Below are positions 3,887-38,963 of a DNA stretch of 42,239 bases, piece by piece. The translations under genes and the position numbers were made by a program. The DNA is from a virus, in the UHGV virus genome UHGV-0380056; one strand, given 5' to 3'. The notes under the pieces are model-generated. The model was not told where the DNA came from. It was given only the letters and a program-made list of their open reading frames with translations, and did no database searches. Numbering within the stretch: the first letter of the stretch is position 1; each line of letters opens with the position of its first letter.

Positions 3887-4432
3887 TTACACCTCCTTAT
3901 ATTTGAATATGTAGCCTTTTGTTTGCTTATAATTTCCGAGTAGGACTTGCCGTATGCCAGAAGGGTTTATTTTTAATCTCCTACCGCATTCATTAATACT
4001 ACGATACTCATTATACTCACCGTTTGCAATATCTATTGCAATAATGCTATTACTATTTTGAGTTTTACGTTGTGTAATTGATCGTCTATATAATGACGTA
4101 CCGTGATTAATATTTTCCTTAGATGTGACCCATTCTAAATTATCTAATGAATTATTTGTTTTATCCTCGTCAACGTGGTTTACTTGTGGTTTGTTTTCAG
4201 GATTTGGGATAAATGCTTCTGCTACTAAGCGGTGGATAGGTCGTTTTCTTTTTACACCGTTATTTGATAAGTGTACTCTTAAGTACCCATCCTTAGTTGG
4301 TATGGGTTTAAGTATCCGTTCAACTCTTAAGTTTCCTCTGCTATCATATCGTAGAAGTGCTTTAACTCTCCCAGTATTACTCACCTGATAAAGTCATTCA
4401 TATCCTTTAATATCTTTCCAAATTTCTTCCAT
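3887..4432 (-). CDS. HNH homing endonuclease (NUMOD4 + HNH_3) with an in-frame TGA at 4394..4396; the 165-aa ORF restarts at GTG 4384
   Basis: A strong AGGAGG ribosome-binding site precedes ATG 4432, giving [12 protein letters not shown], then TGA, then [11 protein letters not shown].... Its paralogues here read [27 protein letters not shown]_3 motif: [41 protein letters not shown]. Confidence 0.75.
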
Positions 4433-8737: not shown

Positions 8738-8770
8738 AGTATAGCACAAATAAAAAGTTTGTGCTATACT
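8738..8770 (+). promoter_or_regulatory. 13-bp inverted repeat AGTATAGCACAAA-N7-TTTGTGCTATACT embedding an extended -10 (TGcTATACT) for the HNH gene
   Basis: Perfect complementarity of 8738..8750 with 8758..8770. TATACT at 8765..8770, followed by the conserved leader aggtacataaataagagagg. Confidence 0.45.
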
Positions 8771-8799
8771 AGGTACATAAATAAGAGAGGAAGATTGAA

Positions 8800-9309
8800 A
8801 TGGAAGAGATTTGGAAAGATATTAAAGAATATGAAGGACTATATCAAGTAAGTAACTTGGGGAGAGTTAAGAGAGTTACAACAGGTAGAATTTTGAAAGG
8901 TAGTAAAGATAGAGGTGGGTATCTAGTAGTTAATTTATCTAAAAACAATAGTGGTTCTATGAAGAAAATTCATCGCCTAGTAGCTCAAGCGTTCATACCA
9001 AACCCAGAAAACAAAGCAGAGATTAATCATATAGACGAAGATAAGACAAACAACATGCTTTCAAATTTAGACTGGATGACGAGAAAAGAAAATAATAATC
9101 ACGGAACTAGAACAGACAGAATGGCTAAAACGCGAAGTATTCCAATCATTGCAATCAATCTAAAAACGAATGAATCTACAGAGTTCTATGGAGCTAGTGA
9201 ATGCGCTAGAAAACTAGGGTTACATCAACCAAGCATTACACATGTACTAAACGGCAGACGTAAACAAACTGGTGGATACACGTTTAAATATAAGGAGGAG
9301 CGGAAATAA
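8800..9309 (+). CDS. HNH homing endonuclease (NUMOD4 + HNH_3 + C-terminal DNA-binding module)
   Basis: [25 protein letters not shown]; [42 protein letters not shown]; C-terminal [13 protein letters not shown]. Confidence 0.85.
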   Translation: MEEIWKDIKEYEGLYQVSNLGRVKRVTTGRILKGSKDRGGYLVVNLSKNNSGSMKKIHRLVAQAFIPNPENKAEINHIDEDKTNNMLSNLDWMTRKENNNHGTRTDRMAKTRSIPIIAINLKTNESTEFYGASECARKLGLHQPSITHVLNGRRKQTGGYTFKYKEERK

Positions 9310-10907: not shown

Positions 10908-11405
10908 ATGAAAGAAATTTGGAAAGATATTGAAGGATATGAAGGAGTTTATCATGTGAGTAACTTAGGACGAGTGAAGAGAGTTGCAACAAATAGAGTT
11001 TTACAACCATATAGAAACAAAGTTGGCTATTTACTAGTTTATTTATGTAAAAACGGTAAGCGTAAAACTCATAGAATCCACCGTTTAGTAGCACAATCTT
11101 TCATACCAAACCCAGAAAATAAACCAGAAGTTAATCACCTAGACGAAAATAAGATTAATAACATGGTTTCAAATCTAGAATGGTCAACTAGAAAAGAAAA
11201 CTGTAACTATGGAACACGTAATGAAAGACTTAGTATCCCAATTATAGCAACTAAGCTAAAGACTGGTGAATCTAGAGAGTTCTATGGAACTAATGAATGT
11301 GCTAGAAAACTAGCGTTAAATAATGCACACATTACAAGTGTTCTAAAAGGTAGATTGAAACAAACAGGTGGATACACATTCCAATATAAGGAGGAAGAAG
11401 GATGA
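10908..11405 (+). CDS. HNH homing endonuclease (NUMOD4 + HNH_3)
   Basis: MKEIWKDIEGYEGVYHVSNLGRVKRV; [28 protein letters not shown]; C-terminal KQTGGYTFQYKEEEG. Confidence 0.85.
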   Translation: MKEIWKDIEGYEGVYHVSNLGRVKRVATNRVLQPYRNKVGYLLVYLCKNGKRKTHRIHRLVAQSFIPNPENKPEVNHLDENKINNMVSNLEWSTRKENCNYGTRNERLSIPIIATKLKTGESREFYGTNECARKLALNNAHITSVLKGRLKQTGGYTFQYKEEEG

Positions 11406-11699: not shown

Positions 11700-11897
11700 A
11701 TGAAATTACATGAATTAACAAAACAATATGAAGATTTAAGAACTGAAGCAGAAATGTTGGAATCATGGATAGTGTATGCAGATTCAATTGAATTAAATGC
11801 CTTGGGAAATGAATTAGAAGACAGACTTGACAAAGTTGAAAGTCTAATGTATGTTGTAAATACACAAATTAAGAAATTGGAGGTTCACAACCAATGA
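11700..11897 (+). CDS. hypothetical coiled-coil protein (65 aa)
   Basis: ORF with a GGGAGG ribosome-binding site. Confidence 0.45.
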   Translation: MKLHELTKQYEDLRTEAEMLESWIVYADSIELNALGNELEDRLDKVESLMYVVNTQIKKLEVHNQ

Positions 11898-11987
11898 CAG
11901 TTACAATTGCAAGTTTATTATTTATGGGTGCAGCACTAACAAGTATTGCAGTACTACTTAAATGGCTAGAAGAAGGAGGATATTAAA

Positions 11988-12170
11988 ATGTATACTGTTG
12001 GTAGAGATCCAGAGCACACTTATGCTATTGAAGTATTGAACGATAAAGGAGAATGGGTAAGGGATATGTATGATGTGCCTATAGATATATATAGCATACA
12101 GAAGCTGGCTCAACATTATAAATTACGAGGATACACACTAAAACAAATTAGAATAGTGAAGGTGATTTAA
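11988..12170 (+). CDS. hypothetical protein (60 aa)
   Basis: ORF with a GGAGGA ribosome-binding site. Confidence 0.4.
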   Translation: MYTVGRDPEHTYAIEVLNDKGEWVRDMYDVPIDIYSIQKLAQHYKLRGYTLKQIRIVKVI

Positions 12171-12171
12171 G

Positions 12172-12387
12172 ATGGATAAATTGAATTACAGAAAAGATCT
12201 AACAACAGAAACGAATGAGCACGTGAGTGTTGGAACGTATGACAACGATAGTGATATTTACATTAGATTACTAGACGATGAAGATGATTGTGCCCTTGTA
12301 ACACTAACTCTGAAAGAGGCACAACGTGTGAAGCGCTATTTATCAGAAGCTATTACAACTAATAAGATGAATTGGGAGGAAGAATGA
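12172..12387 (+). CDS. hypothetical protein (71 aa)
   Basis: ORF with a ribosome-binding site. Confidence 0.4.
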   Translation: MDKLNYRKDLTTETNEHVSVGTYDNDSDIYIRLLDDEDDCALVTLTLKEAQRVKRYLSEAITTNKMNWEEE

Positions 12388-12737
12388 TGAAGGAAGCACA
12401 GTTTTCAAGAGAAGTAACACAGTATTTAGAGAGTAAAGGAGCAATAGTTAATAACCAAACAGGTAGCATGTTTTCTAAAGTTGGTGTATCTGACTTGTTA
12501 GTTTGCTACAAAGGTTACTTTATTGCGTTAGAATTGAAAACTGGTAGATATACCGCAGATCCGTTGCAAATTAGTTACTTACAAAACGTAAGAGAAGCTG
12601 GAGGGTTTGGATTGATTCTGCGAGATACTATTCAAGAGTTAATGGTGTTATTATCTTGTATTGATAATGGAATTGAACGTCAGTACGAGCAACCAGAATT
12701 GCCAGAAATTGAGATTGATAAAATCATATTTGATTAA
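12384..12737 (+). CDS. VRR-NUC domain nuclease (PD-(D/E)xK fold)
   Basis: GVSDLLVCYKGYFIALELKT, i.e. the D...E.K catalytic motif. GGGAGG ribosome-binding site. Confidence 0.65.
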   Translation: MMKEAQFSREVTQYLESKGAIVNNQTGSMFSKVGVSDLLVCYKGYFIALELKTGRYTADPLQISYLQNVREAGGFGLILRDTIQELMVLLSCIDNGIERQYEQPELPEIEIDKIIFD

Positions 12738-12787
12738 TGTGTCAAGATGATAAAAGTTATGGTATACTATAATAAAGGAGTGATACA

Positions 12788-13477
12788 ATGTATATAGTAT
12801 ATTTACATGTTAACAGAGTAAACAATAAAAAATATTTTGGAATAACGTCACAAAATCCACTGAAGAGATGGAATAATGGAAAAAATTATAGTAGTAAGCA
12901 TTTTAAAAACTCAATATTAAAATATGGGTGGGAAAATTTCAATCACTTTATTATAAAATAAGGATTAACAAAAACGGAGGCGTGTCTACTAGAGATTAAG
13001 TTGATTAATAAATATAATACTACAGACCAGCAATATGGATATAACATATCTGTAGGAGGTGACTGTCCAGCAAGAGGTATGAAACATTCCAAAGAATTTA
13101 AAGAGCAACAGAGTGTACGTAGTAAAAATATAAATTGGACATTAGAAAAGAGGAGTAATATCAGTAAAGGTCTTAGAAATCACTATTTAATGCATGAGTC
13201 ACCATTAAAAGGTAGACCTCAGTCATCTGAACACATTAAGGCTAGAAGCGAGGCACTACGTGGTAGAAAAATATCAGTTGATACACGAGATAAAATATCT
13301 AAAACATTAGGTGGGAGATTATTCAAAGCTACTAATATTGAAACAGGAGAGGTGATATATAGTCACAATCAAACGGCAACAGCTAAAAAGCTTAATGTGC
13401 GTAGAACAGGGCTGAGAAGATGTTTAAACAACGAGCAAAAACAAACAGGGGGCTACACTTTTGAATATGCAAAATAA
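12788..13477 (+). pseudogene. GIY-YIG homing endonuclease interrupted by an in-frame TAA (12959..12961). The N-terminal GIY-YIG fragment is 12788..12961; the remainder is the TTG-start ORF 13001..13477
   Basis: The N-terminal fragment reads MYIVYLHVNRVNNKKYFGIT...KYGWENFNHFIIK, then a stop, then GLTKTEACLLEIKLINKYNTTDQQYGYNISVGG. This is colinear with the intact GIY-YIG at 38358..38915 (YGWDNFNHFIIVDKLTKDEADSLEIKLIQAYDTTTTGYNICHGG). The C-terminal module ends QKQTGGYTFEYAK, like the HNH family. Confidence 0.7.
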
Positions 13478-14771
13478 AATAGGTAAAGTAGAACTTCTTC
13501 CACATCAAGTTGAAGCTATTGAATTATCTGATAAAAAGAATTTTGACTTATCATCCGCTGGAACTGGAAAAACGTACTCAGCACTGGGTGCTTATTTGAA
13601 AAGTGGATGTAGTAAATTATTAGTGGTCTGCTTAGCCCCTAAAGTAGCTGATTTTGCAGAAGATGGTAACTTAATGGGAATTACCATTACCCCGTTAAAC
13701 AAAGGAACTGCTAAAAATAAAAAGTTATTATCAGAATCAGATAGAGTAGCCATTAGTTTTGAGAGTAGTTGGCGCTTAACTGATTTGTTGAAATGGGTTA
13801 ACAACGATACTTATATTTTAATTGATGAAAGCCATAAGGTCTCAGTACCAAAATCAAAAGTAACTAAATTCATGATGAGCTTATGTAAAAAGACCACTCA
13901 TGTTAGATTATTAACCGCAACCCCAGTAGCAAACGGAAAACTAGAAAACTACTATAGTCAATTATATATGTTAAATGTGTTCCGCAAGCCAAAAAAAGAG
14001 TTCTATGAGTTATTCGTAACTGAACGCATGCAACAAATGGGATCCGCTAGATTCATGCAGATTATTGGTTACCGCAACGAGCACTTATTGAAACAAATGA
14101 TTGATAAAGTAAGTGTTAGGTATGAACGTGATAAACCATATATGCCACAAGATTTTTATTATAAGACCAAAAAGCCTGCGTTTTATAATAAATTAAAGAA
14201 AGTCAGAATGTACAAAGACGACCTAGATAATATTATTGAGCTAGACAATAGTAGTAAATTATTTAACGCACTGCGTCAAGTATCACATGGTTTTCTTAAA
14301 GGTGTACACAAACAGGTGTCTAAAGAACCGTTTGAGCGTTTACAAGCAGTACTAGAAGAATACAGTGGTGAACGAGTGGTCATATTTTATAATTACAACG
14401 CAGAGTTTTATATGATTTCAGAACTGTTAAATAAACTAAAAAGACCGTACAGTAGTTATAATGGAAATAATAAAGATTTGACTAATTTCAAAGACTATGA
14501 TAATGGAGTGGTTTTAGCCCAATATAAAAGTGCGAGTACAGGTATCAATAGCTTGAAAATAGCTAGTGTATGCGTATTCAATTCTATGCCATTAAGTTCT
14601 ACAGACTATATTCAGGCAAAAGCTAGAGTTGATAGATTTGGTCAGGAGCGTACACCTAACTTTATCCACATTATTCCAGATACACCCATTGAGAAAAAGA
14701 TATTTGAAACAGTCACAAATGGAAAAGATTTTACAAATGAAATGATTGAAAGTGTTGACAAGTATAGCTAA
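13461..14771 (+). CDS. SF2 DNA helicase (DEAD/DEAH or SNF2-like)
   Basis: LPHQVEAIE; Walker A SAGTGKTY; DESH box LIDESHKV; motif VI QAKARVDRFGQ. Confidence 0.7.
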   Translation: MNMQNKIGKVELLPHQVEAIELSDKKNFDLSSAGTGKTYSALGAYLKSGCSKLLVVCLAPKVADFAEDGNLMGITITPLNKGTAKNKKLLSESDRVAISFESSWRLTDLLKWVNNDTYILIDESHKVSVPKSKVTKFMMSLCKKTTHVRLLTATPVANGKLENYYSQLYMLNVFRKPKKEFYELFVTERMQQMGSARFMQIIGYRNEHLLKQMIDKVSVRYERDKPYMPQDFYYKTKKPAFYNKLKKVRMYKDDLDNIIELDNSSKLFNALRQVSHGFLKGVHKQVSKEPFERLQAVLEEYSGERVVIFYNYNAEFYMISELLNKLKRPYSSYNGNNKDLTNFKDYDNGVVLAQYKSASTGINSLKIASVCVFNSMPLSSTDYIQAKARVDRFGQERTPNFIHIIPDTPIEKKIFETVTNGKDFTNEMIESVDKYS

Positions 14772-14784
14772 TCATGCTATACTT
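14755..14784 (+). promoter_or_regulatory. consensus promoter TTGACA-17-TATACT whose spacer and -10 form a 9-bp inverted repeat (AAGTATAGC-N7-GCTATACTT)
   Basis: TTGACA at 14755..14760 (inside the end of the helicase CDS). TATACT at 14778..14783, followed by the conserved leader ttgtacataaataagaggagg. Confidence 0.5.
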
Positions 14785-38357: not shown

Positions 38358-38915
38358 CTAACAAATATAGTTAAAGGTACATTTGTTATGTGTCTTTCGC
38401 TGACCGTTTAGACATTTGTTAATATGTCCTTTATCAAAACCAAGCTCGTTTGAAATGTCTGATACTAGCTGATAATTACGTGTATTACCATCATAAAATG
38501 TGACGCCAATATGTTTGTATTTAAACCCTAACATTGTCTCTGCTTTTATTTTCTGAATTTCTTTTGAGAAAACTTGGCTTTTTCTGCATTCACGTATTTT
38601 TTGCTTTGCTTCTACACTATGTCTTCTACCCCGCATAACACCTGCTCCTCCGTGACAAATATTATATCCTGTTGTTGTAGTATCGTACGCTTGGATTAGT
38701 TTTATTTCTAATGAGTCAGCCTCGTCTTTGGTTAGTTTATCTACTATAATAAAATGATTAAAGTTATCCCATCCGTATTTCTTGATTGCTCTATAAAAAT
38801 GTTTTGAGTTTGAATATGTTGAGCCATTACCCCATCTATCAGAAACTTTTTGACATGTTTGTCCAACATATTTTTTACCATTAATTTTATTTACATGTAA
38901 ATATACTGTATACAT
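38358..38915 (-). CDS. GIY-YIG homing endonuclease (I-TevI-like, with NUMOD3-like linker) inserted in the tail module
   Basis: MYTVYLHVNKINGKKYVGQT...; ...GRRHSVEAKQKIRE. AAGGAGGG ribosome-binding site 6 nt before ATG 38915. The N-terminal extension in the ORF track is the RBS region. Confidence 0.75.
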   Translation of the reverse strand: MYTVYLHVNKINGKKYVGQTCQKVSDRWGNGSTYSNSKHFYRAIKKYGWDNFNHFIIVDKLTKDEADSLEIKLIQAYDTTTTGYNICHGGAGVMRGRRHSVEAKQKIRECRKSQVFSKEIQKIKAETMLGFKYKHIGVTFYDGNTRNYQLVSDISNELGFDKGHINKCLNGQRKTHNKCTFNYIC

Positions 38916-38963
38916 TGAATCCCTCCTTAGTATACAGTATATCATAGTTTTGGCTCTAGTTGG

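Follow-up and report, generated by a model that had tools for sequence, protein, structure and literature searches.

How can a homing endonuclease gene be expressed without harm to the operon that it has invaded? This question is raised by an inverted repeat at positions 12761-12803 of the viral genome UHGV-0380056 (42,239 nt; hereafter the window, i.e., the whole stretch of DNA that was analyzed), which surrounds the ribosome-binding site and start codon of an early GIY-YIG homing endonuclease gene. So far, only T-even phages of Gram-negative hosts have provided a worked-out solution, which combines a hairpin with an internal promoter. A first-pass annotation of the window proposed the same logic for the early gene: the 5' arm of the repeat would be the gene's own -10 box, such that read-through RNA folds and hides the start codon, and RNA initiated at the gene's own promoter lacks the 5' arm and can be translated. 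Our data partly support that interpretation, which is right in kind for the gene family, wrong on the -35 element, and overstated for this particular copy. We estimate, with a probability of roughly 60%, that the repeat is an eroded form of a conserved module belonging to one GIY-YIG cassette family of Enterococcus siphophages and related Firmicutes phages. The fully developed module in the window lies elsewhere, at 38900-38946 on the minus strand.

The window is an Enterococcus siphophage genome of ~42 kb with 34.5% G+C, and its partial relatives include DELF1, Bp29, BUCT630, LG62, and IME-EFm1. The Efquatrovirus phages KEN02, KEN07, and TwoStep have the window's late endonuclease cassette in common.

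A strong hairpin at the start of the late paralog

The second GIY-YIG gene of the window is an intact late paralog (38915..38358) placed just upstream of the tail tube gene. Its 5' region, CTATGATATACTGTATAC-TAAGGAGGGATTCAAT-GTATACAGTATAT, contains a TRTG-n-TATACT box located 20 nt from the ATG. The 5' arm of a perfect inverted repeat, ATATACTGTATAC (38942..38930), is complementary to the 3' arm, GTATACAGTATAT (38913..38901), whose first base is the final G of the start codon ATG (38915..38913), and the 16-nt loop holds AAGGAGG (38928..38922) together with the A and U of the start codon. The predicted local fold amounts to -17.6 kcal/mol. Start accessibility was expressed as the ensemble cost of opening positions -14 to +12, with read-through RNA represented by positions -100 to +60. 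According to this measure, opening the late start costs 15.2 kcal/mol in read-through RNA, the highest value among the 55 genes of the window, versus 4.2 kcal/mol in promoter-initiated RNA, i.e., a difference of 11.0 kcal/mol.

The late paralog resides in a mobile insert whose boundaries were read by eye from the empty-site and window sequences. The insert follows directly on the stop codon of the preceding gene and extends to that of the endonuclease gene. Since the insert (38963..38358) spans the box and both arms, the promoter-in-hairpin module is part of the mobile DNA.

In KEN02, KEN07, and TwoStep, the repeat is 15 bp long, its 3' arm starts with the ATG, and its 11-nt loop contains GAGGTG. 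The same module was found in IMG/VR contigs L105, L027, L103, and L111 as well as in a metagenome sequence, L184. Across these copies, the predicted local folds range from -12.7 to -18.7 kcal/mol, and the differences between read-through and promoter-initiated RNA range from 4.3 to 13.3 kcal/mol. The strong copies account for differences of 10.5-13.3 kcal/mol, versus 1.0-4.3 kcal/mol in the early-site group and L111, and the read-through opening cost reaches 17-19 kcal/mol in KEN07, L105, L027, and L184. The strong copies have the start codon, or at least its G, plus codons 2-5 paired, and the early copy of the window pairs codons 2-5 only; in all copies, the Shine-Dalgarno sequence lies in the loop and not in the stem.

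Further comparison connected the early site with this late type. The late-type proteins share 42-59% identity with the early-site protein, and nucleotide similarity between early and late cassettes begins ~10-20 nt upstream of the TRTG. The late-type cassettes occupy another operon, past the annotated tail terminator gene (KEN07 and TwoStep) and before the major tail gene. Among the copies, the gap from the -10 box to the ATG is 17-20 nt (19-20 nt in most), and the distance from TATACT to AGTATA is nearly constant (~31-34 nt). Three substitutions that turned GTATAC into ATAATA in the 5' arm have cost the early group the upper 5-6 bp of the stem seen in the late group. A stem of 9-11 bp is retained by the intact orthologs in DELF1 and in L188, a 98%-identical metagenome contig.

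The repeat and the putative promoter box at the early locus

The anatomy of the early repeat is as first described. Both the sequence itself and a repeat finder confirm that TATACTATA (12763-12771) is exactly complementary to TATAGTATA (12793-12801) over 9 nt (100%), and that the 21 nt between them hold both AAGGAG (12775-12780) and the ATG (12788-12790). The 3' arm had been assigned to codons 2-4, which is roughly right, given that its first base is the third of codon 2 and its last base the second of codon 5 (codons 1-5, ATG TAT ATA GTA TAT). Additional G.U pairs are possible at the base of the stem, between G12761/G12762 and T12803/T12802.

The claim that the 5' arm doubles as a TATACT -10 element appears credible from its sequence. 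The arm overlaps TGGTATACT (12760-12768), an extended -10 box with TG one base ahead of a hexamer that matches at least five of six -10 positions, and the preceding T-A completes a TATG. This form of the extended -10 is named TRTG, and promoters of the extended -10 type do not need a -35 element. The -35 element proposed in the first-pass annotation, TGTCAA, has to be abandoned: it matches TTGACA at two of six positions and is in fact its reverse complement. The promoter scan's own choice was GTGTCA-18-TATACT (9/12, TG present). In addition, the proposed -35 region is not conserved among homologous cassettes and is mutated in L188. A different -10 candidate, TATAAT at 12768-12773, lacks the TG, and transcription from it would begin within the Shine-Dalgarno sequence, at ~12780; we judged it less likely than TGgTATACT.

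The box belongs to a motif class that is abundant in this genome. TGNTATAMT occurs at 25 sites in the window versus 7.5 +/- 2.7 expected, and none of 100 shuffles reached 25. The orientation of the sites largely follows that of the local genes: 9 of the 12 sites in the plus-strand arm (~6.6-25.9 kb) point along the plus strand, and 12 of the 13 in the two minus-strand arms along the minus strand. For most sites, a predicted start with a Shine-Dalgarno sequence follows 19-57 nt downstream. This window-wide enrichment suggests many host-type promoters across both arms. Examples among the 25 sites are 6665, 8762, 20266, 22513, 33285, 37038, and 41745, and some of the sites precede structural genes. 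Moreover, among eight distinct aligned 5' regions of homologs, TRTG differs only in its R (A or G), with the T, T, and G the same in all; this motif lies outside the stem.

At the early gene, 19 nt separate the -10 box from the ATG, which would place the predicted transcription start (12775) on the first base of the Shine-Dalgarno sequence. As proposed, RNA initiated there would lack the 5' arm; this follows from geometry if transcription does begin at about 12775, as predicted, the box being the 5' arm itself. The gap is 18-20 nt in 13 of 17 endonuclease cassettes, versus 21-57 nt in 36 of 37 non-endonuclease promoter-gene pairs (12 nt in the other one).

Table 1. Coordinates of the features discussed in the text (window numbering)
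Feature	Position	Strand	Remarks
Putative extended -10 promoter, TATGgTATACT (TRTG-n-TATACT)	12758..12768	+	Hexamer TATACT at 12763-12768
Predicted transcription start	12775	+	Seventh base past the -10 hexamer; placed by geometry only
5' arm of hairpin	12761..12771	+	9-bp core at 12763-12771; G12761/G12762 add G.U pairs; RNAalifold agrees
3' arm of hairpin	12793..12803	+	Codons 2-5 (TAT ATA GTA TAT), Y-I-V-Y motif
Shine-Dalgarno sequence AAGGAG	12775..12780	+	In loop
ATG start codon	12788..12790	+	In loop; U and G can enter a 3-bp inner stem extension
Early GIY-YIG homing endonuclease gene	12788..13477	+	690 nt, broken by in-frame TAA
Premature stop codon TAA (codon 58)	12959..12961	+	GAA in all relatives compared
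Late paralog, GIY-YIG gene	38358..38915	-	Intact, 185 aa; PF01541, 33.3 bits; I-HmuI NUMOD-like, 30.9 bits
Putative extended -10 of late paralog, TATGaTATACT	38936..38946	-	Hexamer at 38941..38936
Strong hairpin of late paralog	38900..38943	-	13-bp perfect repeat; G.U closes the base
Mobile insert with late paralog	38358..38963	-	Absent from DELF1, Bp29, and vB_EhiS_268
NUMOD4-HNH_3-NUMOD-like genes	3887-4384, 8800, 10908, 14816, 16042, 21106	- (3887-4384)	

Conservation of the helix

RNAalifold analysis of the eight distinct 5' regions independently yielded the 11-pair helix of the early locus (alignment columns 19-29 with 52-62). In the 16-pair helix of the strong copies, 86.7% of the cells pair, versus at most 63% with slid partners; seven pairs are invariant, and two are changed on both sides. 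At 12769/12795, the early group has A-U where the late group has G-C (Ile ATA versus Thr ACA at codon 3), and L111 (A/C) is an intermediate. Pair 12762/12802 (columns 20/61) goes from A-U in DELF1 to G.U in the window and to G-C in BUCT630, where the change is synonymous (TAT to TAC). In BUCT630, pair 12761/12803 has also moved from G.U to G-C, by a synonymous TTA to CTA change. Such G.U intermediates favor pairing in the sense RNA over a DNA palindrome.

This covariation comprises two pairs in eight related sequences and, with a shuffle control of 11/500, is no more than suggestive. BUCT630 further carries a C to A change in the 5' arm that removes the only G-C pair of the core and turns the -10 into the consensus TATAAT. 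We rejected the view of this change as a plain uncompensated disruption, since the wider alignment showed the two G-C gains at the stem base. BUCT630 is thus neither clean support nor clean refutation, and its predicted difference is 1.0 kcal/mol.

Folding energetics at the early locus

The small extent of the covariation and the pair lost in BUCT630 are among several observations that weigh against regulation by the early repeat. On its own, a 9-bp repeat is within chance: perfect inverted repeats with arms of 9 bp or more and loops of 3-40 nt number 25 in the window, versus 10.3 +/- 3.4 in first-order Markov simulations, and both arms of the early repeat are TATA-rich and nearly self-complementary, a composition that pairs readily by chance. 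The sole ground for considering this repeat non-random is that it is homologous in position to the 13-15-bp repeats of the paralogs. The stem, 9 bp long and A-U-rich, is also predicted to be weak, with -4.2 kcal/mol for 9 bp and the 21-nt loop, -6.1 kcal/mol with the two G.U pairs, and at most about -8.1 kcal/mol with a short inner extension that reaches the U and G of the start codon. In some longer contexts, the minimum-energy fold does not contain it, and the 5' arm pairs locally instead.

The opening costs point in the same direction. At 12788, the predicted cost is 5.1 kcal/mol in read-through RNA versus 3.0-3.4 kcal/mol in promoter-initiated RNA, and the former value is below the median of the 55 gene starts of the window in their read-through context (median, 5.5; 90th percentile, 8.5). 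For 16 other promoter-gene pairs of the window, the difference between the two kinds of RNA spans -0.4 to 3.4 kcal/mol, and the 1.7 kcal/mol of the early gene is within these limits. Occlusion of the start in read-through RNA, as originally proposed, is therefore not borne out at 12788; the folding of transcripts with the two alternative 5' ends agreed with the proposal in direction and fell short of it in size, being within the range of the controls. By accessibility measures, the early locus is predicted to be ordinary. In addition, the predicted transcription start would give a leader of 13 nt with the Shine-Dalgarno sequence at its extreme 5' end, which may not be translated well. Start occlusion is also not seen family-wide: a set of 120 diverse homologs had a median opening cost of 6.5 versus 7.6 in 167 control genes (p = 0.84).

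Given the loss of the upper 5-6 bp, the predicted effect of only ~2 kcal/mol, and the broken reading frame of the gene, the switch in this copy is leaky at best and probably a relic. We expect little or no regulation at 12761-12803.

Predicted occlusion in other lineages

Predicted start occlusion is a trait of certain lineages and not of the enzyme family, and its signal is limited to lineages with a TGnTATAMT box located 18-20 nt from the ATG. Differences of at least 9 kcal/mol were obtained for 8 of 17 distinct endonuclease pairs versus 0 of 32 non-endonuclease pairs (maximum, 6.1 kcal/mol), and a Mann-Whitney comparison of the endonuclease and control differences gave p = 4e-4 for sequences that are related and not independent. 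The control maximum belongs to L021 (Str-PAP-1) at position 1989, a gene annotated as an endonuclease of a non-GIY-YIG kind. Complementary stretches linking the -10 region to the start region reach 8-13 nt in 8 of the 17 endonuclease pairs; none of the 37 non-endonuclease pairs exceeds 6 nt.

The pairing partners are not the same everywhere. In L056, AATGATATAAT pairs with ATTATATCATT over the D-Y-I-I codons (11 bp; difference, 9.6 kcal/mol), and in L107, GATATAAT pairs with ATTATATC (difference, 12.9 kcal/mol); both use a TATAAT box with ATTATA in the D-Y-I codons. L257 shows a bulged 9-bp pairing of the box with the I-I-Y codons (difference, 7.9 kcal/mol). In L131, L028, and LG62, the promoter box and the 18-20-nt spacing are kept without the repeat. 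The annotated start of the LG62 "intron associated endonuclease" (L019, 956-990) is an ATG within cTATGaTATACT, almost certainly the promoter box, and was rejected as a start codon. The likely start is ATG 986, 30 nt downstream of the annotated one, 20 nt past the -10 box and 8 nt past AAGGGGGA, with no significant repeat.

We tentatively raise the broader idea, on which we would bet at somewhat less than even odds, that portable promoter-in-hairpin cassettes, independent of a -35 element and with the -10 box paired to codons of the enzyme's Y-I-V-Y catalytic motif, are recurrent, and possibly convergent, in free-standing GIY-YIG genes of Firmicutes phages. At least two to three registers (TATACT:AGTATA, TATAAT:ATTATA, and the L257 type) would then have arisen independently, each insulating the gene from whichever operon it enters, early or late, and allowing translation only from its own weak transcript, and the early copy of the window would be a decaying or loosened case.

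Proposed mechanism and alternative explanations

Starting from the observed anatomy, homology, location in the mobile insert, motif enrichment, covariation, and calculated energies, the module would work as follows, as far as its start site, promoter activity, folding in the cell, and effect on translation can be predicted. A host-type extended -10 promoter (TRTG-n-TATACT), independent of a -35 element and 17-20 nt upstream of the ATG, would drive the cassette, and the -10 box with the bases that follow it would be complementary to the ATG-proximal codons (M-Y-[T/I]-V-Y). Read-through RNA from upstream genes would contain both arms and fold, burying the start codon and codons 2-5 and leaving the Shine-Dalgarno sequence in the loop. 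RNA from the gene's own promoter would begin at the Shine-Dalgarno sequence, lack the 5' arm, and be translatable. The likely effect would be to uncouple translation of the endonuclease from the abundant polycistronic RNA of the invaded operon. The upstream stop codons lie 21-25 nt ahead of the 5' arms, which by our reckoning would keep a terminating ribosome too far away to melt them.

The explanation closest to this one holds that the early repeat is a relic or a coincidence, in which a TATA-rich box and TAT/ATA/GTA codons pair by default and nothing is regulated by the weak stem of a dead gene. Chance would account for about 10 of the 25 window repeats of at least 9 bp; the below-median opening cost, the control-like 1.7 kcal/mol, the in-frame TAA, and the missing central pair of BUCT630 fit as well. 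We nevertheless give this explanation less than even odds, given that the arms are homologous in position to the 13-15-bp repeats of the paralogs, that 9-11 bp are kept by the intact orthologs of DELF1 and L188, and that the two synonymous T to C changes of BUCT630 oppose the A+T bias and add G-C pairs at the stem base. It overlaps the eroded-module explanation and is consistent with all of the findings described above, and the dispute concerns only the function remaining at the early locus. A DNA-level operator over the -10 box, bound by the endonuclease (autorepression) or by another phage or host protein, seems improbable to us. I-TevI does bind an operator overlapping its own promoter (PMC2988022), and here the repeat overlaps the -10, the TATACT-AGTATA distance is near-constant, and palindromes also cover -10 boxes of HNH endonuclease genes in the window. 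That spacing is explained equally well by the promoter/Shine-Dalgarno/ATG geometry, however, and the G.U (G:T) positions and G.U intermediates fit sense-strand RNA, which is a mild argument. As we see it, the NUMOD-like C-terminal module also gives no cause to expect a dimeric binder of palindromes. A comparison of the late-paralog promoter with the empty homing site of DELF1 gave only a loose TATACT-rich similarity, which was not counted as evidence. The operator and the RNA hairpin can coexist.

Two further explanations keep the hairpin and give it another role. If it were a constitutive translational attenuator on every transcript, the "-10 box" would be a mere complement of the V-Y codons. 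TATACT is indeed the exact complement of AGTATA inside ACA GTA TAT, and a 13-nt leader that begins at the Shine-Dalgarno sequence would be unusually short. We give this idea little credence, as TRTG, with R as A or G, is conserved outside the stem, the box and its 18-20-nt spacing persist in the repeat-less L131, L028, and LG62, the motif class is ~3-fold enriched and mostly on the local gene strand, and TATAAT has another codon partner in L056 and L107. A processing or stability element, for instance an endoribonuclease target that splits the endonuclease message from the operon RNA, would suit the 13-15-bp perfect stems of the strong copies at a gene boundary. This is very unlikely: RNase III substrates are typically longer than such stems, an Rfam scan of the whole window matched no known RNA family, and the 3' arm always lies on the start codon region, a placement not required of a processing site.

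Comparison with known systems

Control by a hairpin together with an internal promoter has been published for T4 I-TevI, T4 segB, and Aeh1 mobE (PMC2988022). The analogy with I-TevI drawn in the first-pass annotation agrees with the published logic (PMC2988022) and is limited by the weakness of the early copy and by the position of the Shine-Dalgarno sequence in the loop. In both systems, a GIY-YIG gene is located within a co-oriented host transcription unit, and a promoter within or beside the 5' portion of an inhibitory hairpin gives rise to two classes of RNA that differ in translatability, as predicted in our case. The T4 promoters are of the late (gp55-type) or middle class and impose temporal control, whereas the window module has a host sigma-A-type extended -10; therefore, a temporal switch should not be assumed. 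The stem of T4 contains the Shine-Dalgarno sequence, whereas here it is the ATG and codons 2-5 that are paired (codons 2-5 in the early copy), and codons of the catalytic motif have the -10 hexamer itself as their pairing partner. Furthermore, the T4 genes are intron-encoded and the window cassettes are free-standing, with the module inside the mobile insert. Control in T4 was proven by experiment; in the window, it is predicted, and weak in the early copy.

With regard to free-standing genes between host genes, T4 segB and mobE of Aeromonas phage Aeh1 are closer, each with a hairpin over the initiation region and an internal late promoter (PMC2988022). They differ in having Gram-negative hosts, T4-type late promoters, and stems that sequester the ribosome-binding site, and mobE is an HNH endonuclease (PMC2988022). 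The T4 genes soc, e, 39, 25, and 26 are late genes on long polycistronic transcripts whose ribosome-binding site is sequestered by structure, and the review groups them with the hairpin-regulated endonuclease genes (PMC2988022). They resemble the window module in that the ribosome-binding region is hidden on long polycistronic RNA, but they are not mobile elements and they rely on the temporal promoter classes of T4. The autorepression of I-TevI is alike in that an element overlaps the endonuclease gene's own promoter (PMC2988022); its operator, however, resembles the homing site and is no palindrome across the start codon. A literature search on such control in Enterococcus or Efquatrovirus phages found nothing relevant.

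If the proposed mechanism is true, small Enterococcus siphophages have arrived at the same logic with extended -10 promoters of the host type, in a form that travels with the cassette. It would bear on the annotation and engineering of therapeutic Enterococcus phages and would offer a compact natural part that insulates translation from read-through. The practical message of the early locus itself is modest, i.e., a pseudogene with a marginal stem.

Decay of the early gene and its relatives

The first-pass annotation overlooked the in-frame TAA at codon 58, which leaves no intact endonuclease to be regulated at 12788 in the window genome. The codon is GAA in DELF1, Bp29, BUCT630, IMG/VR contig L005, and L188, and the TAA (12959-12961) precedes conserved Glu and Asn residues. 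Either this stop arose very recently or it reflects a sequencing error. Alignment of the window copy with the DELF1 ortholog holds codon by codon, and the intact orthologs of DELF1, Bp29, BUCT630, and L188 are 229 aa long; that of DELF1 matches PF01541 (GIY-YIG) with 36.4 bits (cut-off, 22.6) and has a NUMOD-like C-terminal module. A TTG at 13001 could in principle give the DNA-binding half alone.

Damage is also found elsewhere in the family, including a +1 frameshift in an A-run of L005 (2090-2100), an in-frame stop in L184 (~650), and a 5' deletion in L104 (1160-1230) that took away promoter and hairpin along with codons 1-20. In KEN07 and TwoStep, the annotation shows split ORFs (L017/L018, 1869-1896). 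Such independent lesions are the decay expected of homing endonuclease genes. In relatives, the early site holds HNH genes or other content between the same flanking genes, and no truly empty early site was found among the relatives compared.

Genomic context and other endonuclease genes of the window

The early gene lies in the plus-strand replication arm. Its upstream neighbor (12372-12737) is a gene of 117-121 aa annotated as an "endonuclease" in relatives, and its downstream neighbor is an SNF2-type helicase gene (start at 13461/13467). The genes at 11700-12737 are tightly packed on the same strand as the early gene, and a scan found no terminator-like site between 11661 and 13574, which together make read-through into the early gene plausible. 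The helicase start (TTG 13461 or ATG 13467) overlaps the final codons of the GIY-YIG gene (12788-13477), and the 3' end of the cassette thus supplies the helicase initiation region.

Similarity of 94% to DELF1 and Bp29 begins abruptly at 12467, in the middle of the 12372-12737 gene, and continues through the endonuclease gene into the helicase gene, to at least 14499. Upstream of 12467, DELF1 and Bp29 have no match at the 94% level. From the sequence comparison, this boundary appears to be a mosaic junction and is consistent with a co-conversion tract around the endonuclease gene.

Altogether, the window carries at least eight homing endonuclease genes in 42 kb, i.e., six of the NUMOD4-HNH_3-NUMOD-like type and two of the GIY-YIG type. 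The HNH-type genes at 8800, 14816, and 21106 have a TGnTATAMT box of their own; those at 10908 and 16042 have no such box within ~40 nt upstream or overlap with the preceding gene. A different 5' module is common to the HNH genes at 8800 and 14816 (window 8741-8772 and 14760-14784), in which the -10 box TGCTATACT serves as one half of a palindrome, the 3' arm; the arms measure 13 bp in AGTATAGCACAAA-N7-TTTGTGCTATACT and 9 bp in AAGTATAGC-N7-GCTATACTT, respectively. These palindromes may act as an operator or, in read-through RNA, as an upstream hairpin. A stable hairpin also directly precedes, without sequestering it, the ribosome-binding site of seg43(25) in Aeromonas phage 25 (PMC2988022); the palindromes at 8800 and 14816 are likewise upstream of the Shine-Dalgarno sequence, an arrangement unlike that at 12761-12803. 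The palindrome at 8741-8772 places a second complete TGCTATACT box on the opposite strand, and a similar GTACATAAATAAGAG..GGA leader follows both palindromes.

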